From positions 192,001 through 256,000 of the IMG/VR virus record IMGVR_UViG_3300037851_000141: a stretch of 64,000 bases of DNA; one strand, written 5' to 3'. Source of the stretch: a virus (Duplodnaviria > Caudoviricetes). The notes below the pieces were generated by a model, which had not been told where the DNA came from, did not search any database, and saw only the letters and a list, made by a program, of their open reading frames with translations. Both the position numbers and the translations under genes were made by a program. Of the stretch, positions 7,027 through 64,000 are shown piece by piece (within the stretch, counting starts at the first letter, position 1; each line of letters begins with the position of its first letter).

Positions 7027-8343
7027 TTAGTTATCAACTGTTATCACTTTGGTTGTTGGGTCAAGATGGACTCTAAGCTCATCTCCGTCCAGAGTATAGA
7101 AACCAGTTTCCTTCCAGTAGAAACCCTTCCTATTTAACTCTAACTTACGTAATTTGGGAGGTATGTCGGGTAAGGTCTGTTCGTGGTTGCACGACGCATT
7201 ATAGTCTGCGTCGTCAGAAAAGCCACAACCTCGACAGATGTAAATCTTACCCTTCCTATTACTCTTACGTACCAATCCGCAACAACTACACCGTTGACTT
7301 CTGTAAGTACAAGACTGTAAAGTGAAGTGGACCCCAGCCTCTTCACAGCGGCTACTTACTTTGTCTCTGATGAGTGTGTTTGTCCAGTGGGACATCTTAC
7401 GACTCGTTCTACGACCATAGTTTATGTTATTTATCTCTTCCAACTTTAGATGCTTGATGTTCATTAAGTTTAGTTGGTTGACTGACCAATTAATGAAGTT
7501 CTCACGGTGAGATTGGGCTTTAAGGAAGGCTCGACTTCCTTTACGTTTGGCACTCAATTTATCTATAATAGAATCTAATGAGTGTCCATGAGAGTCTGTC
7601 TTTGGTGTTGTTTGTCTGTCCGACAACGATATTATTGTCAATTTACCTTGGTCAGCACCAACATCAACACCTTTGGTCTTAGGTGGAACATCTTTTTCCC
7701 ACCGTAGATTTACGAAGTTGGTTCCGATGAGGAACGAGTTGAGCATCTTCCAATCAGCATATTTTGAGTTATGTTTGTGGAATCTTATAGGTAGTTTGAT
7801 ATGACCATATTCATCACCGATACATTTGAGTCTGAGGACTCCGTTGAAATATGATGTATTTTGGGTTGGTTCCCAATCTATACATTTGCTTGATAATTCT
7901 GGGTTGATATTACTAAGATCAGGCTTTAGAGCCTGGAATTTCTGTAGATTTTGATATAGTCTCTCATTATAAACTCCTTCATCACAGAGTTTATTGAATA
8001 CCCATAATCTTCGTCTACGGACTTCCGTAGTTGCTGATATACATCCAGCAACCTGAGTTACCAGAGAGGATAATGCTCGGGCTGATAGTGGAGTTTGAAT
8101 ACCAAACAATTTGTAATCTATGAAACTTGGAGTTTCAAGGTTATCATCTTTGATAGAGAACTGATGCTCTGTAGATACTCCAGTTTCTTTATTTGTAGTA
8201 GTCCACTTGTATCCATGTTCCCAAATAAGGTCAACTATGAGTTGCCCAACTCTACGATACTCGGCAATAAACTTGTTCAACTTGTCAAGTTTATTCTTAT
8301 TTGTATCTTTAAGAGAATGAGAAGTTGACCGTATAGTAGTCAT
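7027..8343 (-). CDS. tnpB: TnpB/Cas12f-like RNA-guided RuvC endonuclease
   Basis: VGADQG (RuvC I), KLEEIN (RuvC II), SQRCSCCG..YICRGCGFSDDADYNAS (Zn finger + RuvC III). Confidence 0.85.
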   Translation of the reverse strand: MTTIRSTSHSLKDTNKNKLDKLNKFIAEYRRVGQLIVDLIWEHGYKWTTTNKETGVSTEHQFSIKDDNLETPSFIDYKLFGIQTPLSARALSSLVTQVAGCISATTEVRRRRLWVFNKLCDEGVYNERLYQNLQKFQALKPDLSNINPELSSKCIDWEPTQNTSYFNGVLRLKCIGDEYGHIKLPIRFHKHNSKYADWKMLNSFLIGTNFVNLRWEKDVPPKTKGVDVGADQGKLTIISLSDRQTTPKTDSHGHSLDSIIDKLSAKRKGSRAFLKAQSHRENFINWSVNQLNLMNIKHLKLEEINNINYGRRTSRKMSHWTNTLIRDKVSSRCEEAGVHFTLQSCTYRSQRCSCCGLVRKSNRKGKIYICRGCGFSDDADYNASCNHEQTLPDIPPKLRKLELNRKGFYWKETGFYTLDGDELRVHLDPTTKVITVDN

Positions 8344-25450: not shown

Positions 25451-25636
25451 ATGATTGAACTAAATAATAAAAAGTACTATACAACTAAAGAAGTATCTCA
25501 GAAATTGGGGCTACATTTTAGGACTATTCAAGGTTGGGTAAGTGCTGGTAAATTGATTCCACTAAAATTCGGACCTAAAAAATTCTATTACGATGAAGAA
25601 TCAATTGAAAAATGTTTAAGAGGAGAAAATAAGTGA
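25451..25636 (+). CDS. Excisionase/MerR-type HTH protein
   Basis: YYTTKEVSQKLGLHFRTIQGWVSAGKL; late promoter at 25424; AGGAG RBS. Confidence 0.8.
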   Translation: MIELNNKKYYTTKEVSQKLGLHFRTIQGWVSAGKLIPLKFGPKKFYYDEESIEKCLRGENK

Positions 25637-27213
25637 AGATTATTGACAATGTTGAATATTATATACAAAATGACATTCCTAAATATTTTGATATATGCTT
25701 AGATGCTATTAGGAGTAGAATTCGAGATAAAAAATTATTGCCAAGTATCATCGTTGGTCGTAAAAATATGTATTCTAAAAATGATATAGAAACTTGCTTA
25801 AAAAATTATCCACTTATTTCTCTATGGACAACCGAGAAAGTAAAAGATATAGTTAGTAAAAAACATCCAAATATAAAGTTTCAAGAAAATTATGAATATA
25901 CGAAATTAGAAGATAAAATTTCTGTTACATGTTCTAAACATGGTTCTGTTCTAACAACAGTTTATAGATTATCCACTAAAGAATTTGGGTGTCCTGAATG
26001 TGGAAAAGAGGTTGGAAATAAACGAATGATGGAAACAATATCAATTTTAGTTGATGAGTTTATTGAATTAGCCAGAGAAAAACATGGCGATAAATTCCAA
26101 TATAATAAAGAAACATATTCCGGTTTATCTTATCCTATGGAAATAATTTGTCCTATTCATGGCTTGTTGAAAATAAAACCATCATCACATCTAAAAAAGT
26201 ATGGATGTAAATCGTGTTCCGGTGAAAATAATGTTAAAATAATGAATAAAGATAAAAGGTTAACACAAGAAACGTTTATCAATAGATGTAAACTTGCTCA
26301 TAATTGTTTTTATACCTATGAAAAAACTGTTTTTACAACTACGATCAATAAAGTGGTTATAACATGTCCAATACACGGGGATTTTATCCAAATATCATCA
26401 CATCATTTAAATGGGGTTGGTTGTCCACAATGCGCTTATAAGAATGTTAGCGATCAAAGAAGAAAAAGCCAAGAAGATTTTATTAAAGAATGTTTATTAA
26501 CTCATGGTAATAAATACGATTATAGTAAAGTCGTATATAAAGGTATTGATGAAAATGTTATAATAATATGTCCTCTTCACGGAGAATATCAACAAACTCC
26601 ATATAATCATCTTAAAAGCCATGGATGTCCAACCTGTGGATTCATAGTAGCAAAAAATGCTCAACGATCAAATGTTGAAGAATTTATAAAAAATGCCAGA
26701 TTAGTTCATGGTAAGAAATACGATTATAGTAAAGTTGTATATATAAATTGTGATACTAAAGTAGAAATAATTTGTAATAAACATAAAAAATCTTTTTTCC
26801 AATCACCATATTCACATCTTAAAGGAAATGGATGTCCAAGATGTTATAATAGAATATCAGCAATAGAAGAGATGTGGTTAGATCATTTACAAATACCAAA
26901 CGATAAAGAACATCGACAGGTAAGAATTCCATTATGTACTGGTAAATATATAATTGCTGATGGTTATATTCCAGAGACAAATACTGTATATCAATTTAAC
27001 GGCGATTATTTCCATGGTAATCCAAAATATTACAAACCAGAGAGATTTAATGTTGTTTGTAATAAAACCTACGGAGAATTATATAAAATTACATTAGAAA
27101 AAGAAGATATTATAAGAAAATCTGGATATAATTTAATTGTAATGTGGGAGCGGGATTATAGATTACAACTAAAATCAATTAATGGCAACAATCCTCGTAT
27201 TCATAAACGCTGA
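25633..27213 (+). CDS. Putative free-standing homing endonuclease: HTH + repeated CPxHG/GCPxC zinc modules + C-terminal PD-(D/E)XK-like domain
   Basis: About five HGxKYDY..IICPxHG..HL.G.GCPxC repeats; IADGY..YQFNGDYFHG..YNLIVMWE. Confidence 0.75.
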   Translation: MKIIDNVEYYIQNDIPKYFDICLDAIRSRIRDKKLLPSIIVGRKNMYSKNDIETCLKNYPLISLWTTEKVKDIVSKKHPNIKFQENYEYTKLEDKISVTCSKHGSVLTTVYRLSTKEFGCPECGKEVGNKRMMETISILVDEFIELAREKHGDKFQYNKETYSGLSYPMEIICPIHGLLKIKPSSHLKKYGCKSCSGENNVKIMNKDKRLTQETFINRCKLAHNCFYTYEKTVFTTTINKVVITCPIHGDFIQISSHHLNGVGCPQCAYKNVSDQRRKSQEDFIKECLLTHGNKYDYSKVVYKGIDENVIIICPLHGEYQQTPYNHLKSHGCPTCGFIVAKNAQRSNVEEFIKNARLVHGKKYDYSKVVYINCDTKVEIICNKHKKSFFQSPYSHLKGNGCPRCYNRISAIEEMWLDHLQIPNDKEHRQVRIPLCTGKYIIADGYIPETNTVYQFNGDYFHGNPKYYKPERFNVVCNKTYGELYKITLEKEDIIRKSGYNLIVMWERDYRLQLKSINGNNPRIHKR

Positions 27214-28134
27214 TAAATCAGTCCCGCCGGCATATGATATACCAGATTGAATACTTTGTTTGAGTTCAATCAAGAAGTCTTCCATATCACCATTGTAATC
27301 CATGATGACTTTTTTGCCTTCTACGTGTATCCTTTTTCCTTTTTTAGCTTGTTCCGACGCATTACCAAAATATACACACTTTTTATGACCATCTATTTCA
27401 ATTATTTCAGAACCACTTTGATTGTATCCGCAAAATAATGATCCAACCATTACCATTGTGGCTCCACATGCTAATGCTTTATTTATGTCACCAATCTCTC
27501 TAATTCCACCATCAGCTATAACAGGTTTTTTGGCTGTACTAACACACTCCAATAAACATGAAACTGTTGGTCGAGTAAAACCAGTCATAACCTTTGTCGT
27601 GCAAGCTTTCCCAGGGCCAATATGAACCCTACAGCAATCCGCGCCCCATTCCTCAATTTCTTGAACGGAATTTTTACACGCCATATTTCCAACAATCAAA
27701 AACGAATTTGGAAGATTAGTTTTTATAAAATCAATCATTATTTTTGTTTTTTCGGACCAAGCATGAGCGACATCAATTGTAATATAATCTGGATCTAATT
27801 TTTCTTCTTTTATTCTTTTTATTTGATCTTTTGATTCTTGATTTACGCCAACACTAATTGAGGTAAACAATTCAAGAGATTTCATTTTACGAAGAAACGA
27901 TACTTGATCATGATCGAATCGGTGCATTACGTAAAAGATATTTTTCTTAGCCAAAAACTCACAGGTATATTCATTTATAACTGCTGGCATGTTGGCTGGC
28001 ATTACCGGAACATCAAATTTTCTTCCACCGAAAACTACACTTGTATCACATTCACTTCTACTATTTACTACGCATTTATTAGGTACAAGATAAACGTCAC
28101 TATAGTTATATTCTCTGGTAATTTGACGGGTCAT
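27175..28134 (-). CDS. guaC: GMP reductase
   Basis: PVMPANM, ITIDVAHA, GPGKACTTK, PVIADGGIR..GDINKAL, VEGKK. Confidence 0.92.
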   Translation of the reverse strand: MTRQITREYNYSDVYLVPNKCVVNSRSECDTSVVFGGRKFDVPVMPANMPAVINEYTCEFLAKKNIFYVMHRFDHDQVSFLRKMKSLELFTSISVGVNQESKDQIKRIKEEKLDPDYITIDVAHAWSEKTKIMIDFIKTNLPNSFLIVGNMACKNSVQEIEEWGADCCRVHIGPGKACTTKVMTGFTRPTVSCLLECVSTAKKPVIADGGIREIGDINKALACGATMVMVGSLFCGYNQSGSEIIEIDGHKKCVYFGNASEQAKKGKRIHVEGKKVIMDYNGDMEDFLIELKQSIQSGISYAGGTDLSAFMNTRIVAIN

Positions 28135-28562: not shown

Positions 28563-29147
28563 TCAATCTAAAATTCCGAATCCCAATTTATCTTTGGTTA
28601 ACTCAGATTTTTTCTCAAATATATGTTTATGTGATTGATCTGAAACAACATGTATATTTAGTTTAACTTTTATTCTATGGATACGTTGGTTGAATTTAGG
28701 TATAGATGAACCTTGGTATCCTTCATAAAGAGTTATATGTGGTTTATATGTTGGATAATCACTTGGAGAATAATTTCCGACATTTGTTAACCAAGAATTG
28801 ACCTTATTGAACCAGTTATGTATCTCATCAGAGTCGAGGGCGAAGACAAGGCATTTATCATCACCAAGGATCTTAAAATTTGATGTAAATGCTGTAATTT
28901 CAGGTAGTTGTATTGTATTTAGCCATTCGAGGAATAAGTCTGGCGTTTGTCCAAGTTGTAATCTGACATAGCGTATAGTTGCGTGGAAGTCATCTTTAGG
29001 TTGTGGTTTAGCTTCCTTAAATTGTTCTGGATACATTTCTTTTAAGGTTTCTTGTACTTCTTCCAAACAAGCCGAGAATTCTGGATAAACCATATAGCAG
29101 AAATTTCGTTTAGTTTCTTCATTAATAAGATATTGTTTGAAGGTCAT
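28563..29147 (-). CDS. 2H phosphoesterase (T4 gp57B/Acb1- or LigT-like)
   Basis: Two HxT motifs: FHATIRY and YKPHITLY. Confidence 0.85.
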   Translation of the reverse strand: MTFKQYLINEETKRNFCYMVYPEFSACLEEVQETLKEMYPEQFKEAKPQPKDDFHATIRYVRLQLGQTPDLFLEWLNTIQLPEITAFTSNFKILGDDKCLVFALDSDEIHNWFNKVNSWLTNVGNYSPSDYPTYKPHITLYEGYQGSSIPKFNQRIHRIKVKLNIHVVSDQSHKHIFEKKSELTKDKLGFGILD

Positions 29148-30106
29148 ATAGAATCATCCGAGAAAATATTGTACAGTTTTTTATTTAGTTTTTCGTAGAT
29201 AAACTCTTCTTCCAGTTCATAGTTTATATCTAATGCTTTAAGTGCTATTTCAACTTCAGAGAGACATTCATTTCTTCCACCGCCACATAGTTTAACGTGC
29301 CCTGATACCATATTTTTTAACTTAAACATTAAATCAGGTAAATTGATATTGTCATCAGCAAATTCTAAAAGTTCTCTTAAATGAGGTTTATCGTATTCTT
29401 TTACAAAATTATCCCACATTTTTGATTCTGTTATATCTCGACTATCATATATTTTATTTTTATACATGAATTTCACCAATAGAACAATATCATCTACATC
29501 AATCCCAGAATCCATACAATATCTAAAGAAAGCATAACCTTTATCGAAGAATGTTATATTATCTAAGTAATCTGCGTTTAATCCTTTTTCAATATACCAA
29601 TTCATTAATTCGGTTTCTTCAATCATATCCAAAGTTTCTTTACCATTATATAAGACAACTATATTAGTATTTGATTCAAGTTCTTCGTTTATTTTATTCA
29701 TAAGGTCATATACGTCAAATGATATGTATTTTTTATATTCTGGTTGGATATCTACTAAAATGTGGGTATAAGATTGTTTTTCATTTATTTCGGTATTAAA
29801 TATTTCTACTATTTTATTGGTGAGGATTCGTTTTCTTTCTACATTTTGAGTTGCTTCGTCAAAAAGTATATCCCAGATTGGTTTACCTTTGACATCGGTA
29901 TTCATTAGATATTCGCCGGGGTTTGATGCTGGCCTAATATCTTTTGTTTCATCCATATATGCTTTGATGACCGTATAATCTTCCCCGTTATAAATGGCAG
30001 ACGTTTCGGCATGTTCAAGTGCGAAACGTTCAGATGGGGTTACATAGTCATCTTTACGGAATATTGGTTCAGTATTTTTCGGTAAAGCCCTGTAAATAGT
30101 TTTCAT
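29144..30106 (-). CDS. Two-domain hypothetical: small ART-like N-terminus + isochorismatase-like C-terminus
   Basis: TIYRALP..DYVTPSERFALEH; HILVDIQPEY..LCGGGRNECL. Confidence 0.45.
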   Translation of the reverse strand: MKTIYRALPKNTEPIFRKDDYVTPSERFALEHAETSAIYNGEDYTVIKAYMDETKDIRPASNPGEYLMNTDVKGKPIWDILFDEATQNVERKRILTNKIVEIFNTEINEKQSYTHILVDIQPEYKKYISFDVYDLMNKINEELESNTNIVVLYNGKETLDMIEETELMNWYIEKGLNADYLDNITFFDKGYAFFRYCMDSGIDVDDIVLLVKFMYKNKIYDSRDITESKMWDNFVKEYDKPHLRELLEFADDNINLPDLMFKLKNMVSGHVKLCGGGRNECLSEVEIALKALDINYELEEEFIYEKLNKKLYNIFSDDSI

Positions 30107-30744: not shown

Positions 30745-30790
30745 ATGATAACTCCTGGGCTAATTGTATTTATATATTTAGGATAACAAA

Positions 30791-30822
30791 ATGACCCAAG
30801 AGATTTTATCCTCCTGGGTCAT
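30791..30822 (-). terminator. Terminator hairpin
   Basis: ATGACCCA/TGGGTCAT inverted repeat with A-tract on + strand 5' side. Confidence 0.6.
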
Positions 30823-30845
30823 TAAGTGGATATAAACTTAAGTTA

Positions 30846-31517
30846 TTATGCTTGGTAGATTACGATCTTATCAGTAAACACAGCATAACGAACATTTTTA
30901 GTGAGATTAGCTTGGGTCAGGGTCATCTTACGGACTCGGCAACCCTTTGAAGCCTTCATTTGGATAACATCTGGTTGGGTGCTGACGGTGATGCTATTTG
31001 GATGAATCTTGACGAAAACAGTCTTATCAAGCAAGTTAGATGAGATAAGGACTGCCAGAGGAATTTCAATTGCGCCATCTGACCGGATTTTCGCTGGAAC
31101 ATCAAGTTGTGCGCCAGGGATGCCAGTAGAATACGGTTGAGTATCCACATTTGATTGCTGGTGCGGCTGTGGTGCTTGTTGAGGCTTGGTAGCAACCTTA
31201 TTTCGTTGAGTATAGTTATCTGGATTGAAGCCGATTGGGTGATAGAGACGAGCATGAGCCGGTCCGCTATTAGTCACCACTTCTATATCAGTGTGAGTCC
31301 AGTCACCAAGAAGATTATTGACTGAAGCATTGAAAATAGGCTTGGCTACCTCATGAACGTCCCGATGGCGAACAAAGGGACCACCATCATTCTTCACCTT
31401 TTCAGATATATCAAGAATAGTAAAAGGTTCATCAGACTGTATTGAATCGACAAATGCTTCCATTACTCGTTCAATGAGTTCTGATACAGTATGGGTTTGG
31501 GTTGCTTGGTTGGTCAT
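30846..31517 (-). CDS. Hypothetical early protein
   Basis: TTGACA-16-TACAAT promoter at 31585-31558. Confidence 0.7.
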   Translation of the reverse strand: MTNQATQTHTVSELIERVMEAFVDSIQSDEPFTILDISEKVKNDGGPFVRHRDVHEVAKPIFNASVNNLLGDWTHTDIEVVTNSGPAHARLYHPIGFNPDNYTQRNKVATKPQQAPQPHQQSNVDTQPYSTGIPGAQLDVPAKIRSDGAIEIPLAVLISSNLLDKTVFVKIHPNSITVSTQPDVIQMKASKGCRVRKMTLTQANLTKNVRYAVFTDKIVIYQA

Positions 31518-31590
31518 ATGACACCTGTGCTTTCTATGTGCTGGTGTTGTTGGGTTTATTGTACCCAGGGTTTGATGATTGTCAAGAACA

Positions 31591-33003
31591 TTATCTTTCG
31601 AGTTCTACTAAGTATTTGATAGAAACTTGTTCAACAGTTGGGAAGATAAATTCGTTGTTGTATAAGCCCTTACCTTCCTTGGCGAAAACCGAATCAAATC
31701 CTTTTTCGCGGCATTTATCTGCTTCATATCCACTACCCCAATATACTTCTTGTTGTTTGCCTGCTTTTACATTACATACAAGCAAGAAACAGTTATCAGT
31801 ATGAATCATGTTTGGGAACGGATACAAAGAGTAGTTGAGAGATTTTGTTGAGTTTGATGCCGCGTAAATACCAAACCCAAACGCCAAACCAGACCGGGGA
31901 GCTTCTTTAGGTGCGATTAATAGTCCACGCTTAAAAATGCCCAAAAAATTACTGTTTCTACTGCCATGAAATAGTTCAAGTTCATTTTTGATTGAACATG
32001 CCGAATATCTTGATGAATCCGCTTGTAAATTGACACGATAGATGTTACGAACCTTGACCGACATATGAGAATGGTTCTTGCCTTTACTTGAAACTGCTTT
32101 TTGTACAATTCTCTTATATTCTGGATCGTTTTTATCCAGTATTTCAATTTCGGTATTCAACTCTTTATACTTAATGTCGGTGCTACTTGTATATGTTCCA
32201 CCACCTACTTCCAAAGCATCTTCCATCATAGTCAACAGATCAAGTTTTTGTTGAATGATAACGTCTGTATTAATAAGATCGTTATCAGTGATTTTTCTAC
32301 CTAAGTTGGCCGGAATTCTTGAATAGAACGCACCAGTAAGGGTTCTGATTTCTTGAACATCATTATCTTTTACAGCTTGGGTTAAGTTTCCAAGAATGCT
32401 TTTACCGTCGCCAATTTGCTTAAAGGTTAGTACACCAAGCGGAGTTTCAAGACCGTTTGAAGTGATATTAACCGCAGAGTTATTCTTAATTGTACTTGAT
32501 GATTCCCGGTATAACTGATCAACGAGTTTAGAAATTGTTGGATGAAGATTAAGTTGGATAATATTTACGTCTTTATTTTCAACCAACTTTTTCTTTTTAG
32601 CTTCGGGAACTTCATCTTCCGAAACCTTATATACTTTTTGTCTGGCTTTTGGGCTTCCTACTTTAGCTTTTACGAACTGGATTTCAATATAACCCTTTGA
32701 TGGGCGAACCTTTGAGTCGAATTTTGAGTTGAAAAACTTTGTCATTTCGGATTCTGTTGCTGGACCATAAACACCAACAGACCCGGTATATTCATCATCA
32801 GATACTCGTCCATAATTAGTATAAACTCTGAACTTCCCGTTTGAGGAGCATTTATGTAATTCAATTGAGAAGAACTTGTTATTATTGCCGTCTGCGTTAG
32901 TTTGATTGCCTATTCTATGTTCAATCACTTCATAATCAGGGAAATCTTGATTGAGAGCATCGGAGCCACATTGATGCTTCACTTCTTTCCAGTCGGCAGC
33001 CAT
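31591..33003 (-). CDS. Poly(ADP-ribose) polymerase: WGR + regulatory + catalytic domains
   Basis: NNNKFFSIEL..TNYGRV (WGR); FYSRIP (regulatory); LFHGS, APKEAPRSGLAFGFGIY, LYNNEF (H-Y-E triad). Confidence 0.9.
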   Translation of the reverse strand: MAADWKEVKHQCGSDALNQDFPDYEVIEHRIGNQTNADGNNNKFFSIELHKCSSNGKFRVYTNYGRVSDDEYTGSVGVYGPATESEMTKFFNSKFDSKVRPSKGYIEIQFVKAKVGSPKARQKVYKVSEDEVPEAKKKKLVENKDVNIIQLNLHPTISKLVDQLYRESSSTIKNNSAVNITSNGLETPLGVLTFKQIGDGKSILGNLTQAVKDNDVQEIRTLTGAFYSRIPANLGRKITDNDLINTDVIIQQKLDLLTMMEDALEVGGGTYTSSTDIKYKELNTEIEILDKNDPEYKRIVQKAVSSKGKNHSHMSVKVRNIYRVNLQADSSRYSACSIKNELELFHGSRNSNFLGIFKRGLLIAPKEAPRSGLAFGFGIYAASNSTKSLNYSLYPFPNMIHTDNCFLLVCNVKAGKQQEVYWGSGYEADKCREKGFDSVFAKEGKGLYNNEFIFPTVEQVSIKYLVELER

Positions 33004-33048
33004 AGGTATGTCCCCTTTTGCTGCGAGGATTGTACCTTAGCTTTTCTC

Positions 33049-34767
33049 TTAGTCAACCTTTTTCTTTTTTCTACCTTTACCGGCCTTTACTATTGGCGTA
33101 GCTGGTGTCTGTTCTATTTCGGCGTCTGGATTTGGTGCTGGTTCACTTTTTAGTTGTTCTTTTTCAGCATCCATTTTAGCTTTTATTTCGGCGTGTTTGC
33201 GGGCTTGTTCTTCTGCGCCAGGGTTTACCCAAGCATTATATTTTGGCAATTCTGAATCTGGAATGCCGAGTTGATTTTTATAAGCAGTAAATTTAGCGGC
33301 TATTTCTTCTTTAGTAAATTCGCCAGGGAACAGTTTATTTATTCCTTTTTGATTTGTTGCTTCTATTTGGAATTTGCCGGATGGTCGTTTATGGAGTTTG
33401 AAGTTAGCTTTACCTTGTCCTTTTAAGTCAAGTGCTATTGATGGTTCTTGTGATGTCTCGACTGGTTTAGGTGGTTCAACGATAGTATTTTCGGGACTAT
33501 CTTGTTGAGTTGGTGCTGGTGCTGTTGGTTGTATATCAATTGGATTATTATCTGTATCTTCTGGTTGAACTGGTGCTGCTGTTGGTTCAGTTTTTGGTTC
33601 TTCTGGTTTAGTAGGTTCGACTGATTTGGGTTCTAATGCTGCGGTTTCTTCAGGAGGATTAAAAACATTCCTTATTTTTTGGTCTATTGGTTTATCCATG
33701 ATTTTTGTATCAATATTAGGTTCAATTAACAATTTGGACACATCTTCTATAATTTTTGGCATTAATTCTGATTGTATATATTCTTCCAGTTTTTTAAGAT
33801 TTTCTGGAGACAGAGTTTTTATAGAAGCTTTAAGATTTGGAACAAGTTGGAATATATCATCTATTGCTGATTCGTCCATTTGAGACGTTGATAGCTTTAA
33901 TATTTGTGTTGCTATTTCTTTACGATATTTACGGATAGCCTTTTTAATTTCTTCATATTTTGGAATTTTTTGATCTTCTGGTAGATTATTCCATATTTCT
34001 TTAGCTTGTTGATTTAGGAATGGAGTTATATCTATTTGTTTTGGAGTGATTGAGAATGGTTCTTTACTTTGAGGTTCAATATTTCCCACATCTATATTTG
34101 TCATTTTTTGGAGTTTTTGTTTTATTGTTTCAGGTTTAGGTTTTTCGGTTGGAGCTACTTTAGTTGGCTCTGGTGCCGTCTTATTTATTTCATCTGGGTT
34201 TAATTCTGGAACATCGAAATCTGAAGTTGGCTCTGGTTTAGTTTCGGGTTTAGTTTCAGCTTGTTTAATATCATCAATAACAGCAGATTGAACTTTATCT
34301 ATTTGTTGTTCTACTTTATCTGCTTTTTTAGTTTCTTGATCTGGATGTACAAGTCCAACTTCGCCTTTATTTGATATGATGTTATATGATGTTTCTTTTA
34401 TTTTTTGGAAATTTTTATATGATTCTTCGTGTTCAGTTTGTGATTTTTTAGTCAGTTCTGATTTTTCTTTTAATTTCTGAACAACAGGAAGATTCTCAAA
34501 GCGAGTTTCAGCATATTTTTTTAATTCAATGTCAAGTAATTCGGATTGGAGTTGAAGTGATTTATTTTTGAGGTTGAAATATTGTTCTATATAATCGACC
34601 ATTTTTTGGAATACAGTAGCAATTTTTTCTTCAGAAACTTTATTTTTTATTTCTGGTAAAGCCATACGAACAGAATCAATAGCGCCAATAACTGATATTC
34701 CTTCATTTAATACTATATCAATGTGTTCTTCTGAGAATATTTGGTTTAGTTTATCTTTAAGATTCAT
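33049..34767 (-). CDS. Pro/Glu/Thr-rich hypothetical late protein
   Basis: 572-aa ORF in late operon. Confidence 0.7.
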   Translation of the reverse strand: MNLKDKLNQIFSEEHIDIVLNEGISVIGAIDSVRMALPEIKNKVSEEKIATVFQKMVDYIEQYFNLKNKSLQLQSELLDIELKKYAETRFENLPVVQKLKEKSELTKKSQTEHEESYKNFQKIKETSYNIISNKGEVGLVHPDQETKKADKVEQQIDKVQSAVIDDIKQAETKPETKPEPTSDFDVPELNPDEINKTAPEPTKVAPTEKPKPETIKQKLQKMTNIDVGNIEPQSKEPFSITPKQIDITPFLNQQAKEIWNNLPEDQKIPKYEEIKKAIRKYRKEIATQILKLSTSQMDESAIDDIFQLVPNLKASIKTLSPENLKKLEEYIQSELMPKIIEDVSKLLIEPNIDTKIMDKPIDQKIRNVFNPPEETAALEPKSVEPTKPEEPKTEPTAAPVQPEDTDNNPIDIQPTAPAPTQQDSPENTIVEPPKPVETSQEPSIALDLKGQGKANFKLHKRPSGKFQIEATNQKGINKLFPGEFTKEEIAAKFTAYKNQLGIPDSELPKYNAWVNPGAEEQARKHAEIKAKMDAEKEQLKSEPAPNPDAEIEQTPATPIVKAGKGRKKKKVD

Positions 34768-35933
34768 TTCGTGTTCCCACCTACAAGATTTAGTTCCGCA
34801 TCACTATTTTGTTCTAAACTTGATAGTAATGAAGCAGCATCATCAAGATATTTATTTAATTGTTGAATTTGAGCATTAATATCCATGGCTGTTGGTGTAT
34901 CGTTTTGTATTTTAGCAAACTTCAAGGCATATTCAAGAGCATTTTTATAGGCTTGATATTGTTTTATAATAGTATCAAGATATTGGAGAGATTTACCCCG
35001 AACGCCAGCACCAGTTTTTCTACTTATGAAGTCTTTACCTTTACGAATAAAATCAAGCATACCTTCATCAAGTTCCATATTATAGTTAACTGACTCAAAT
35101 AAGGTGTTCATCAATGTCAATCCATCCTCGGTTTCATCTTCTTCTACTTGAACTTGAGTTTCTTTTTCAGTATCTTTTTTATCACTTTGAGTCCATTCTA
35201 TCTTCTTATTATCTCCACTCATCTTCCATACCCATTTATCTTCAACTTTACAGGCCGAGTATTTATTTGGTATTATTACTTCATAAGGTCCAGCATAATA
35301 AGGTGCTTTAGTTGCCAAGAAAGTTGTGTTTGTCTTACTTAGTGATTTCCCTGGAGCAGCTTCGTTGTTATATTGATCTATAAGTTGTTTTTTAGCTTTT
35401 ACAGCATTTATAACAGCATTAATGTCAAAAAGTAGCTTAGATGAATCAACATTTGTTATAACCAGTAAACCACCAATTGGATCACCTTTGGTTTGGTCAT
35501 ATGCTACGGCTATTTCTCTTGCTTTACTTCCATCAGATGTCCAAGAAATAAAAGCATCCTGTGGAGTCATATGAACTTCTGATCCTGGGTCTGGTAATGT
35601 ACTAAGTGGATCACCTTTACGTACCGGAAATCCCTTGAATAGACGATAATTGTCCTTTAACCCAATACCAACAAAGGTTCGCGCAACTATTGACCTACCA
35701 AGCACTTCTAATATTTCTGTGATTACTTGTCTCTTGGTTTTTCCAGGATGATCGTCAGTTAAGAATTCAACAACGCGAGATAAGATGATATTTATTTCAC
35801 CGGGACGCATTCCAAAATATTTCTTAAGTTGTTCATCAGATACATTCTCTTTTTTTAATTGAAGATAAGGATTCTGAGACATCTCTTGTTGCTCAAATAA
35901 AATAGCTCTTATCCGATCTTGAATAGAATACAT
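34764..35933 (-). CDS. Hypothetical late protein, possible ADP-ribosyltransferase-like fold
   Basis: YRLFKG..AFISWT..KAREIA; TATAAATA at 35954. Confidence 0.5.
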   Translation of the reverse strand: MYSIQDRIRAILFEQQEMSQNPYLQLKKENVSDEQLKKYFGMRPGEINIILSRVVEFLTDDHPGKTKRQVITEILEVLGRSIVARTFVGIGLKDNYRLFKGFPVRKGDPLSTLPDPGSEVHMTPQDAFISWTSDGSKAREIAVAYDQTKGDPIGGLLVITNVDSSKLLFDINAVINAVKAKKQLIDQYNNEAAPGKSLSKTNTTFLATKAPYYAGPYEVIIPNKYSACKVEDKWVWKMSGDNKKIEWTQSDKKDTEKETQVQVEEDETEDGLTLMNTLFESVNYNMELDEGMLDFIRKGKDFISRKTGAGVRGKSLQYLDTIIKQYQAYKNALEYALKFAKIQNDTPTAMDINAQIQQLNKYLDDAASLLSSLEQNSDAELNLVGGNTK

Positions 35934-36013
35934 AACTGCCCTCTTATCTATTATATTTATATATCTTGAAATCTAAAATCCCTATGATATAATGTTTACC
36001 ACAAAGGAACAAC

Positions 36014-47236: not shown

Positions 47237-48448
47237 TTAGGTGTGAATAAGTGAGTATATTTTACCCGACTTATTTACAATGTCAAGATTACTGTTTCTT
47301 CCATCTGACTTGTTATTGATATTGCTATCAAATTCAGAGGTCTGATGTCCACAGTCGTTGATTTCCGCCAAGCCAGCGGTATATATATTTATTGCGGCAT
47401 TATAGTCTCGATTTAGTGTAAATCCACAAATCTCGCATTTATATGTTCGTTCTTCAACTGGCATCTCGGCTTTAACATGACCACAACTTGAACATGTCTT
47501 GGTTGATGGATACCATTTGTTTACCTTATGTAAGATATTGTCGTAAATATCTTTTTTATAAGATAGCTGTCGAATAACTTTCCCTATACAAGTATCGGTA
47601 GTAGATTTACCATACTTCTTCATCCATGATTTTACAGATAAATCCTCAATTATGATAGCTTGGTTTTCGCTACATAACTGAGTTGTTAACTTATGAGTAA
47701 AATCATGTCTGATATTAGATATGCGAAGATGTAGCTTCGCTACTTTGAGTCTTTGTTTATCTCTATTTTTACTTCCTTTTTGTCTACGACTTAGTTTACG
47801 TTGATACCGTGCTAACTTCGACAAATTGGACTTGAGTGGCATTGGCGAGTGAATCTCATTACCTTGGTTGTCGGTAACGAGAGTTGTCAAACCAAAGTCA
47901 ATTCCTATTTTATTATCAGAAATACGAGGTTTTTGATAACTTCCAACATCAACTGATATTGAAGCGTACCATTTGTCTGCTTTTCTTGAAATTACACAGG
48001 AGTTGATTTTACCTTCGAATCTCAACTTCTCTGTTATTCTTATTTTACCAATAAGAGGAAGTCTGATGTGAGTATCTGATATGCTAAACTTGTCATTTGA
48101 TATATAGAATGTGTCTCGATTTCCACGTTTCTTAAATTTAGGGTAATTTGTTATCTTATTGAAGAAACTTGAGAATGCTGCACCAAGATACGCAAATGCT
48201 TGTTGATTCGCATCTTTTGGACTCTCATATATCCATGGGAATTCAGCTTCTTTTATTTTATTGAATTCTTTTTTGATTAAGTTAGCATTCGGTTTGGGTA
48301 AGTTATTATCAGATTTCCAACTTTCATACATTTTAGTCCACTTACTTAGTCCCCAATTATAAGTAAATCTGGCACAACCACATGCTTTAGCAAGTTGATT
48401 TTGCTGTTCCTTATTTGGTTGGAGTTGTATCTTGTGGCTGAGTATCAT
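47237..48448 (-). CDS. tnpB: IS607 TnpB RNA-guided endonuclease
   Basis: HTH LAKACGCARFTYNW, GIDFG, IIEDL, STKTCSSCG..CEICG..RDYNAAIN. Confidence 0.93.
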   Translation of the reverse strand: MILSHKIQLQPNKEQQNQLAKACGCARFTYNWGLSKWTKMYESWKSDNNLPKPNANLIKKEFNKIKEAEFPWIYESPKDANQQAFAYLGAAFSSFFNKITNYPKFKKRGNRDTFYISNDKFSISDTHIRLPLIGKIRITEKLRFEGKINSCVISRKADKWYASISVDVGSYQKPRISDNKIGIDFGLTTLVTDNQGNEIHSPMPLKSNLSKLARYQRKLSRRQKGSKNRDKQRLKVAKLHLRISNIRHDFTHKLTTQLCSENQAIIIEDLSVKSWMKKYGKSTTDTCIGKVIRQLSYKKDIYDNILHKVNKWYPSTKTCSSCGHVKAEMPVEERTYKCEICGFTLNRDYNAAINIYTAGLAEINDCGHQTSEFDSNINNKSDGRNSNLDIVNKSGKIYSLIHT

Positions 48449-62461: not shown

Positions 62462-63073
62462 TCAAACCTCGTCAGAGTTAATGATTTTGATTCCGGCTTT
62501 AGTCATTTCAATAATTGCTTCATTCTCACTACCTACAGGATAATTGACACCACGGCAGGCATCAACAACAACATAGGTTTCAAAATGTTTAACAGCATCA
62601 AGAGCAGTAAACTTCACACAATAATCCGTAGCAAGTCCACAGATATAAACTTTCTTGACCCCAGCATTAAGTAAGAATGTTAATAGTCCGGTGTCATTTT
62701 TGTTATGATTGTCTTGGAATCCACTATAGCTATCAACCGTTGGATCACAGCCTTTATAAAATACTACCGGCGGCGTAAGCAAGTCTGGATGTAATTCGGC
62801 TCCTGGCGTATTTTGTACACAGTGAGCGGGCCACATCATTTGAGGTTGCCCACCTAATGTACCCATAGTAAACGGTTGAGTATTATTGTTTGCCGCAAAG
62901 CTACCATGATCCGCCGGATGCCAATCTTGAGTAGCAACAACTAAGTCATTTCTATCAAAGAATTTACGCATAATCTCATTGGCAACCGGAACGATACTAT
63001 CTCCATCGTTTACTGCTAAAGCACCACCAGGGCAGAAGTCATTTTGTATATCAACCAGAATAAGAGCATTCAT
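62462..63073 (-). CDS. pncA: Nicotinamidase
   Basis: LVDIQNDFCPGG, DWHP..H, WP.HC, KG..DSYSGF, GLATDYCV. Confidence 0.95.
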   Translation of the reverse strand: MNALILVDIQNDFCPGGALAVNDGDSIVPVANEIMRKFFDRNDLVVATQDWHPADHGSFAANNNTQPFTMGTLGGQPQMMWPAHCVQNTPGAELHPDLLTPPVVFYKGCDPTVDSYSGFQDNHNKNDTGLLTFLLNAGVKKVYICGLATDYCVKFTALDAVKHFETYVVVDACRGVNYPVGSENEAIIEMTKAGIKIINSDEV

Positions 63074-63632: not shown

Positions 63633-64000
63633 CTATTTCCTACAGATTGGGAACCTACGACCGATACCAAACGATACTGGACTGATCTTGACGATTGGAG
63701 CAGTTTGACGACGTTTATATTCAGCTATGTTAATAATCCGAATAATCCTGTTATAGTTCTGTTCGTCAATATCATCCGACTTACGGCATTTCTTGAAGGT
63801 ATCAAAGTTGTCAATCCGTTCTTCAATATATGCTTGACAGATACGATCAAGAATAGGATACGGCAACAAACTATCTTCATCAAACTGACCAGGAGCCAAT
63901 TCAGCACTTGGTTTCTTTTCAATTATCTCAGTTGGAATATGCGGTCCAAACTTTTCATTGATATGCCGGCACAAATCAAACACTTCCATCTTGTATAAAT
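63633..64000 (-). CDS. nadE: NAD+ synthetase, C-terminal part (gene begins beyond window)
   Basis: Frame open to window end; LYKMEVF, KPSAELAPGQFDEDSL..YPILD, AEYKRRQ. Confidence 0.9.
   Translation of the reverse strand, partial: LYKMEVFDLCRHINEKFGPHIPTEIIEKKPSAELAPGQFDEDSLLPYPILDRICQAYIEERIDNFDTFKKCRKSDDIDEQNYNRIIRIINIAEYKRRQTAPIVKISPVSFGIGRRFPICRK

Follow-up and report, generated by a model that had tools for sequence, protein, structure and literature searches.

A PARP gene with a conserved downstream partner gene in a T4-like jumbo phage

In this study we describe a gene for a PARP (poly(ADP-ribose) polymerase), an enzyme of the kind with which animal cells tag breaks in DNA by ADP-ribose, together with the genes accompanying it, in a 64,000-nt stretch of viral DNA (the window) that covers bases 192001-256000 of the 331,849-bp IMG/VR virus record IMGVR_UViG_3300037851_000141, estimated to be 92% complete. 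The gene is an uninterrupted open reading frame (ORF) with an ATG start on the minus strand at 31591..33003, and it encodes 470 aa. Three Pfam domains, each scoring above its threshold, follow one another along this phage PARP: a WGR domain (residues 33-108, 32680..32907, minus strand; PF05406, 34.8 bits against a cut-off of 22, and placed also by alignment with the WGR domains of PARP2 and PARP3), the helical, autoinhibitory PARP regulatory domain (HD; residues 153-262, 32218..32547, minus strand; PF02877, 49.1 bits against 26.8) and the ADP-ribosyltransferase (ART) catalytic domain (residues 295-468, 31600..32121, minus strand; PF00644, 94.5 bits against a curated cut-off of 26.7, E 7.9e-27). 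When the sequences of the PDB were searched, a PARP1 catalytic fragment matched with a phmmer E of 1e-30 and human PARP2 aligned in full length (residues 32-400) with E 3e-28. An AlphaFold2 model built from an alignment of 66 relatives reached a mean predicted local distance difference test score (pLDDT) of 90.9 and a predicted template-modelling score (pTM) of 0.85. It contains a helical bundle in the regulatory domain with the conserved core leucines Leu189/204/257, and its top Foldseek matches are human PARP2 and PARP1 WGR-HD-ART chains on DNA breaks (7aeo, 6x0l, 4dqy; E 1e-24 to 1e-27, TM up to 0.71). The match lies far beyond what chance would give. A first-pass annotation of the sequence had proposed a PARP1/2-like WGR-regulatory-catalytic layout and had staked its reading on the predicted fold; the order of the Pfam domains and the model, which matches PARP1 and PARP2, bear out both.

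The H-Y-E triad that had been read from the letters is intact as well and consists of H346, Y380 and E451. These residues, G347 and Y391 are invariant in the family alignment (66 sequences, from more than 100 clusters found), in which the conservation of K387 and S388 reaches 90% or more. Y391, the equivalent of the nicotinamide-stacking tyrosine, belongs with G347 and S388 to the nicotinamide site. Between H346 and Y380, the loop at the donor site is as long as that of PARP1/2, and the motif parallel to these enzymes noted earlier is found at A364-Y380, where APKEAPRSGLAFGFGIY aligns without gaps with APPEAPVTGYMFGKGIY of PARP1. In the WGR domain we found the motifs NQTNxxxNNNKFF and Y64-G65-R66, with K98 and Y105 just after them. 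A tyrosine in place of the tryptophan, giving Y-G-R, is the usual state of bacterial PARPs (PMC5966428). The residues with which PARP2 contacts 5'-phosphorylated breaks, N127, N128, K130, Y132, W151, R153, K179, K183 and Y201 (PMC6294510), correspond to N40, N41, K43, F45, Y64, R66, K94, K98 and Y105 of the phage PARP, and nine of ten mapped contact positions are identical or conservatively replaced, with Q159 as the exception. In an alignment of 235 rows the K98 column holds lysine in 51 of 52 eukaryotic rows and the Y105 column tyrosine in 50 of 52, and both residues are present in every row of the partner-linked group (phages bearing the partner gene described below) and of the group labelled 'other phage/bacterial'. 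Across the nine partner-linked phage rows N40, K43, Y64, R66, K98 and Y105 are identical, and the H, Y and E of the triad are retained in all nine. The earlier proposal that the WGR domain senses DNA breaks thus fits a domain that keeps the PARP2 residues for 5'-phosphorylated breaks.

Directly downstream of the PARP gene, on the same strand, lies a conserved gene that the first-pass annotation overlooked (30846..31517, minus strand, 223 aa), and which we call the partner. It was delimited by synteny, by Pfam matches of its homologues and by a structural model; the copy in the window has no Pfam or PHROG match. The model (pLDDT 82) comprises two confident domains, a predicted winged helix at the N terminus (about residues 5-105, pLDDT ~90) and, beyond a disordered linker (residues 114-134), a putative tandem AbrB/MraZ-like domain (residues 135-223). 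The structural neighbours of the N-domain in the Atlas are winged-helix domains, and this domain has no sequence family match. For the C-domain, Foldseek and VIA both rank MraZ first, a DNA-binding protein of the tandem AbrB type, and three partner homologues match Pfam MazE/AbrB (PF04014), of which one, in locus L013, exceeds the threshold (25.1 bits against a cut-off of 24.7). Hence the partner is probably a DNA-binding protein made of a winged helix and an MraZ/AbrB-like domain. Conservation is universal over its N-terminal ~105 residues, where F32, T33, K42, I78, V80, L91 and Y92 do not vary; the C-terminal part is absent in three loci.

The two genes stay together over long distances of PARP divergence. 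All 13 loci of this clade that could be assessed (L005-L014, L089, L099 and the window) have the partner directly downstream of PARP, and among these the ten closest IMG/VR loci (L005-L014) all carry it 3' of PARP at PARP identities down to 28-34%, with every other neighbour changed. In L008 a gap of 9 nt separates the genes, and in L013 they overlap. A reverse scan from a partner sub-alignment returned seven loci, all of them PARP-linked, of which six had already been found and one was new (L099, a 545-kb contig with PARP and then the partner); no partner homologue away from PARP was seen among these seven. Word-based search gave only two partner homologues because the family evolves fast, and one narrow-pattern scan of genome contigs gave two contigs of metagenome-assembled genomes (MAGs). 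On a 122-kb Chloroflexota MAG contig, either bacterial or a mis-binned phage, PARP is followed by two tandem, slightly overlapping partner N-domain genes (L089, equivalent to L109:677-1502, minus strand). The association extends further into bacteria. Eight of 401 sampled Chloroflexota genomes encode a PARP, and seven of these are ~6-Mb genomes with an enzyme of 438-440 aa. In all seven loci the next same-strand ORF, 12-80 nt away, matches a hidden Markov model (HMM) of the partner N-domain, and it is the sole ORF of its locus to do so; hhalign between the partner N-domain and the Chloroflexota gene gave a probability of 88.9% and E 2.4e-6 over 78 columns. Judged from these sequences, PARP and partner appear to form a two-gene module in the phage clade, with a winged-helix-only version of the partner in Chloroflexota. 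A literature search found no paper describing such a pairing.

The genome that carries the module has a gene for the major capsid protein gp23 of T4 type (E 7.5e-98), which supports the phage setting assumed from the start. The T4 late-promoter motif TATAAATA occurs at 22 sites in the window where 11.7 are expected, a count reached by none of 100 shuffles, and the sites often stand just upstream of ORF starts (for example 609, 1985, 3566, 11500, 30767, 35954 and 38919). Four tRNA genes lie within the window, and its ORFs include typical phage accessory genes by PHROG. By these marks the source is a 332-kb T4-like jumbo phage; a giant virus of eukaryotes was considered and is ruled out by the T4-type gp23, the enrichment of TATAAATA and the PHROG matches. 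Megablast of 15 kb around the PARP gene against GenBank phages found no near-identical phage DNA. Related proteins are common: a word-indexed search returned 109 clusters, of which most measure 455-490 aa and repeat the three Pfam domains and many derive from contigs of 100-420 kb, a HMMER search over 1.84 billion representatives gave 3,494 matches, 105 of them below 1e-30, and 132 IMG/VR viral contigs encode a relative.

Phage-encoded PARPs are nothing new and are already on record. Those of Aeromonas phage Aeh1 and Cellulophaga phi4:1 were listed by Perina in 2014 (PMC4245714), the XacN1 enzyme BBA65562.1 was described with the proposal that such enzymes add polymers to host proteins (Iyer 2021, PMC7824862), 'PART (PARP)' is among the most frequent viral ART families (Iyer 2022, PMC9503650), and a 2024 Microbiome paper includes PARP in its count of NAD-dependent genes in jumbo phages of the gut (PMC11662467). 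The window PARP itself is an ordinary, well-conserved member of this catalogued class. Three points go beyond the searched literature: that the partner is linked to PARP, that this linkage reaches into bacteria, and where the eukaryotic PARPs stand in the tree. The PARPs of Xanthomonas phage XacN1 (ORF414, BBA65562.1), Xoo-sp13, Klebsiella FBKp34/05F01 and Cellulophaga phi4:1 (gp031), annotated from sequence, mostly share the full WGR-HD-ART architecture, but they are only 25-30% identical to the window PARP and sit on other tree branches; the cultured-phage genes (XacN1, 05F01, phi4:1) have other neighbours (a von Willebrand factor A protein; radical S-adenosylmethionine (SAM) and ribonucleotide reductase genes; a DNA ligase) and no winged-helix partner. 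T4 Alt, ModA and ModB are likewise phage-encoded NAD+-dependent ADP-ribosyltransferases, but they lack WGR and HD and belong to the R-S-E clade of mono-ADP-ribosyl or RNAylating enzymes (PMC9503650), so that the earlier placing of Alt/Mod as mono-ARTs of another class holds; the window PARP has the H-Y-E triad with WGR and HD. With the human PARP2/PARP1 core it shares domain order, fold (Foldseek E ~1e-27), WGR contacts, donor loop and catalytic residues, whereas the identity is ~21-28% in structural alignments, the N-terminal extension, zinc fingers and BRCT domain of PARP1/PARP2 are missing, and the phage offers no HPF1 or histone context. Close in build are the bacterial enzymes HaPARP (Herpetosiphon aurantiacus) and CdPARP (Clostridioides difficile CD160), which are also compact WGR-HD-ART proteins of ~430-470 aa with Y-G-R replacing W-G-R, the H-Y-E triad and a loop of few residues ahead of the catalytic Glu, and in Chloroflexota the PARPs of HaPARP size have a partner-family gene after them as in the phage. 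In contrast, the phage PARP is only ~26-30% identical to the sampled bacterial PARPs, the bacteria with HaPARP and CdPARP pair the enzyme with a PARG (a glycohydrolase that acts on poly(ADP-ribose)) not found in this phage, and the phage partner adds an AbrB/MraZ-like C-terminal domain that the bacterial one lacks.

Signals around the two genes might set them apart from their surroundings. A sigma-70-like promoter (TTGACT-16-TACAAT, 33029..33056, minus strand), a consensus match only, lies just upstream of the PARP start in a gap of 45 nt, and another consensus match (TTGACA-16-TACAAT, 11/12, 31558..31585, minus strand) lies between PARP and partner in a gap of 73 nt. A hairpin resembling an intrinsic terminator (stem of 14 bp, T tract; 30790..30823, minus strand) directly follows the partner stop codon, and TATAAATA motifs precede the genes flanking the cassette (35954-35961 and 30767-30774). 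This arrangement suggests an early-transcribed PARP-partner cassette among late genes. It is only partly repeated in relatives: L005 has a similar promoter-like site before the partner and L013 a terminator with a 10-bp stem after it. A conserved promoter layout is not general, and in the second sub-clade the genes abut or overlap without an internal promoter.

Nicotinamide is a by-product of PARP, and genes that could serve its reuse are encoded at some distance. An isochorismatase-family (PncA-like) gene lies at 62462-63073 (minus strand) and a glutamine-type NadE gene at 63633-64000 (minus strand), at the window end; the cluster runs on in the phage record (G000:C1:255705-258877) with a nicotinate phosphoribosyltransferase (NAPRTase) gene 1.7 kb beyond the window end, and an NMNAT-like gene is found at G000:C1:164224. 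PncA-like protein, NAPRTase, NMNAT-like protein and NadE could together provide a route from nicotinamide to NAD+, and NAPRTase-family genes are present in 6-7 of nine related PARP-bearing contigs. The ORF at 29144-30106, guessed by eye to be a nicotinamidase, has no Pfam support for this and was dropped in favour of the gene at 62462-63073. A link to an NAD-dependent ligase was also considered; no LigA adenylation domain was found in the phage genome. The sole candidate ADP-ribose eraser of the genome is a 198-aa macrodomain protein (Pfam Macro, 40.5 bits) at L003:1378-1974 (plus strand), equivalent to G000:C1:268180-268776.

Taken together, we regard it as reasonably probable that the gene encodes a working DNA-dependent ADP-ribosyltransferase of the PARP1/2/3 type, carried by a T4-like jumbo phage in a two-gene module with its partner. 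In such a mechanism the WGR domain would bind DNA nicks or ends, especially 5'-phosphorylated ones; break binding would loosen the autoinhibitory helical domain, so that NAD+ could reach the H-Y-E site and ADP-ribose be transferred. The product would probably be poly(ADP-ribose) in short or unbranched chains, like that of the equally compact HaPARP and CdPARP, the likely acceptors would be PARP itself and the co-encoded DNA-binding partner, with DNA ends also possible, and the nicotinamide-to-NAD+ recycling genes could cover the NAD+ cost. The enzyme might thereby serve to mark or handle broken DNA during infection; a role in takeover, repair or counter-defence, as first proposed, would be pure inference. 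A constant partner may point to a target of bacterial and phage PARPs, and its linkage across phages and Chloroflexota gives a concrete and cheap experimental handle on the acceptor.

Several observations weigh against this reading or parts of it. Full-text literature searches turned up no phage PARP that had been studied biochemically. No PARG or ADP-ribosylhydrolase (ARH) gene (PF05028, PF10021, PF03747) was detected in the 332-kb genome, where PF05028 is uninformative as it was silent in control genomes too, and the macrodomain gene is ~44 kb from PARP, with macrodomains in only 1-2 of nine related genomes. A pairing of writer and eraser as a conserved feature was dropped on these counts, and a reversible PAR cycle is not evident because PARG and ARH are lacking and the macrodomain gene is distant and rare in relatives. 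The partner matches in Chloroflexota are weak (17-20 bits) and convincing only by position. Fold scores of the partner are middling, with VIA Z 5-7.4 for the N-domain against winged-helix domains (Fur, Cdt1 and SSV1 F-112 among them) and Foldseek probability 1.0, E 0.02, and VIA Z 7.4 over 89 residues for the C-domain against MraZ, and the fold assignments are therefore probable rather than proven. Sigma-70 consensus matches are no commoner in the PARP region than in shuffled sequence. Finally, only 59 residues separate Y391 and E451, ~20 fewer than the eukaryotic median of 78.5 (52 rows).

The question of what the enzyme would make turns on this last point. In PARP1, the acceptor side of the active site is formed by the stretch ahead of the catalytic Glu. 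In pairwise alignments this stretch is 21 residues shorter in the phage PARP than in PARP1 and 28 shorter than in PARP2, the partner-linked phages have 56-64 residues between Tyr and catalytic Glu, and the long acceptor loop of eukaryotic PARP1/2 is thus lacking. With the acceptor side shortened, chain length and branching therefore cannot be read from the triad alone. The first-pass annotation took the triad as support for poly-ADP-ribosylation; the triad stands, but H-Y-E is necessary for a polymer and no proof of one. The enzyme might instead be an active transferase that is not a polymerase and adds, like PARP3 or PARP4, single ADP-ribose units to a protein such as the partner or to phosphorylated DNA ends, capping them. 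We hold this possible, if on balance doubtful. PARP4, which has the same fold as the phage PARP and shares the H-Y-E triad, is named a mono-ADP-ribosyltransferase by its PDB depositors, the short acceptor loop and the lack of a detected PARG would suit such an activity, and PARP2 is reported to ADP-ribosylate DNA besides protein (PMC8190142). However, the donor loop and K387, S388 and Y391 are PARP1/2-like, and CdPARP, in which Y370 and E428 are 58 positions apart with 57 residues between them, gives an anti-PAR signal and mobility shift that bacterial PARG reverses; both it and HaPARP, minimal WGR-HD-ART enzymes, are DNA-dependent and rucaparib-sensitive and form an anti-PAR-reactive product (PMC5966428). 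Because an enzyme with equally short spacing makes PAR, polymer formation by the phage PARP is, by analogy, the more likely reading. The short loop would thus lower the claim of a PARP1-like branching polymerase and leave that of a PARP as it was.

Other explanations concern the purpose of the enzyme and the part played by its companion. Possibly PARP acts chiefly on the NAD+ pool or on proteins of the host, as a weapon of takeover or counter-defence like T4 Alt/Mod, and DNA binding only serves to activate it upon degradation of the host chromosome. Iyer et al. suggest for phage PARPs an action on host proteins like that of other phage ARTs (PMC7824862), the sigma-70-like promoters suggest early transcription by host polymerase, NAD+ salvage genes co-occur in 6-7 of nine related genomes, and a gene resembling the anti-CBASS phosphodiesterase Acb1 stands three genes from PARP. 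But only the window and L006 have that Acb1 neighbourhood, the conserved companion is a predicted DNA-binding protein and no defence-related gene, and the same module occurs in bacterial chromosomes, where host takeover makes no sense; we find this explanation quite improbable. It might also be argued that the partner is a mere transcription factor, co-inherited by chance and without a part in PARP chemistry, as both of its domains have predicted folds that are classic for transcription factors (winged helix, MraZ/AbrB) and it has its own putative promoter in the window and L005. Chance would have to explain why the adjacency outlasts PARP divergence to ~28% identity with all other synteny lost, why it spans phages and bacteria, and why the reverse scan found no partner homologue apart from PARP, and such an origin of the pairing seems unlikely to us.

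The PARP tree bears on the origin of eukaryotic DNA-damage PARPs. Among the nearest representatives, the long proteins are PARPs of eukaryotes and share 30-37% identity with the phage PARP (named examples: Balamuthia, Cavenderia, Heterostelium, a chytrid protein annotated PARP2, Panicum, Eutreptiella and MMETSP protists), and one named bacterial PARP (Pseudomonas) is 26% identical. A FastTree of 235 rows gave a first view of the topology, and a more careful IQ-TREE (LG+C20 with posterior mean site frequencies) comprised 51 labelled rows, among them one named bacterial PARP, with the 184 other, chiefly short unnamed rows left out. In the latter the 20 eukaryotic rows form one group (support 94/90), and a 99/98 branch unites them with the window sub-clade (window, L005, L006, P0018, P0042), the L012 sub-clade and P0110, to the exclusion of the second partner-linked sub-clade (L007, L008, L011, L013, L014) and other phage and bacterial PARPs. 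Forcing 18 core phage rows into one clade, a group defined after the tree had been seen, costs 33 log-likelihood units in the approximately unbiased (AU) test (p-AU 0.0017). With Chloroflexota PARPs added in a quick search the eukaryotes stay nested, and partner-linked lineages then occupy most parts of the tree. Were long-branch attraction at work, the long eukaryotic stems should be drawn toward long outgroup branches and not toward the shorter window clade. The nesting of eukaryotic PARPs among partner-linked lineages is a lead only, because the trees lack a root and sampling is biased, with the rows of eukaryotes and the unnamed rows picked as top matches to this phage PARP. The nesting would fit a transfer from prokaryotes or phages to eukaryotes more easily than the usual assumption, by which PARP passed from eukaryotes to bacteria. 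A tentative and rather speculative scenario would be that PARP and its winged-helix partner form an ancient two-component module with which bacteria and large phages signal DNA breaks, with the partner as physiological acceptor or cofactor, and that eukaryotic PARP1/2-type PARPs branched from within the phage-borne radiation and lost the partner, rather than prokaryotes borrowing PARP.

The further surroundings of the PARP gene hold some additional observations. Upstream lie two genes without a family match (33049-34767 and 34764-35933, both minus strand) that are conserved with L005 and L006; one of them encodes a 572-aa low-complexity protein rich in Pro, Thr, Glu and Lys, and a late-promoter motif stands ahead of the pair. 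Three genes downstream of PARP is the gene for a 194-aa 2H phosphodiesterase (28563-29147, minus strand) that matches Acb1, a protein directed against the cyclic-oligonucleotide-based antiphage signalling system (CBASS), with 37 bits against a cut-off of 27; elsewhere it was seen near PARP in L006 only. Beyond it an IMPDH/GMP-reductase-family gene (27175-28134, minus strand, 176 bits) is conserved with L006, and a 526-aa HNH endonuclease is encoded on the opposite strand (25633-27213, plus strand). The phage record holds a second, divergent ART of the H-Y-[EDQ] type (317 aa, L002:1141-2094, plus strand, equivalent to G000:C1:275783-276736), which matches PARP and Tpt1/KptA weakly (20 bits each) and is directly followed by a radical SAM gene; in Klebsiella phage 05F01 a radical SAM gene likewise follows PARP. 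Two transposase-family ORFs (PHROG 506) lie at 7027-8343 and 47237-48448, both on the minus strand, the second with E 2e-110, and one of them stands beside the tRNA cluster.

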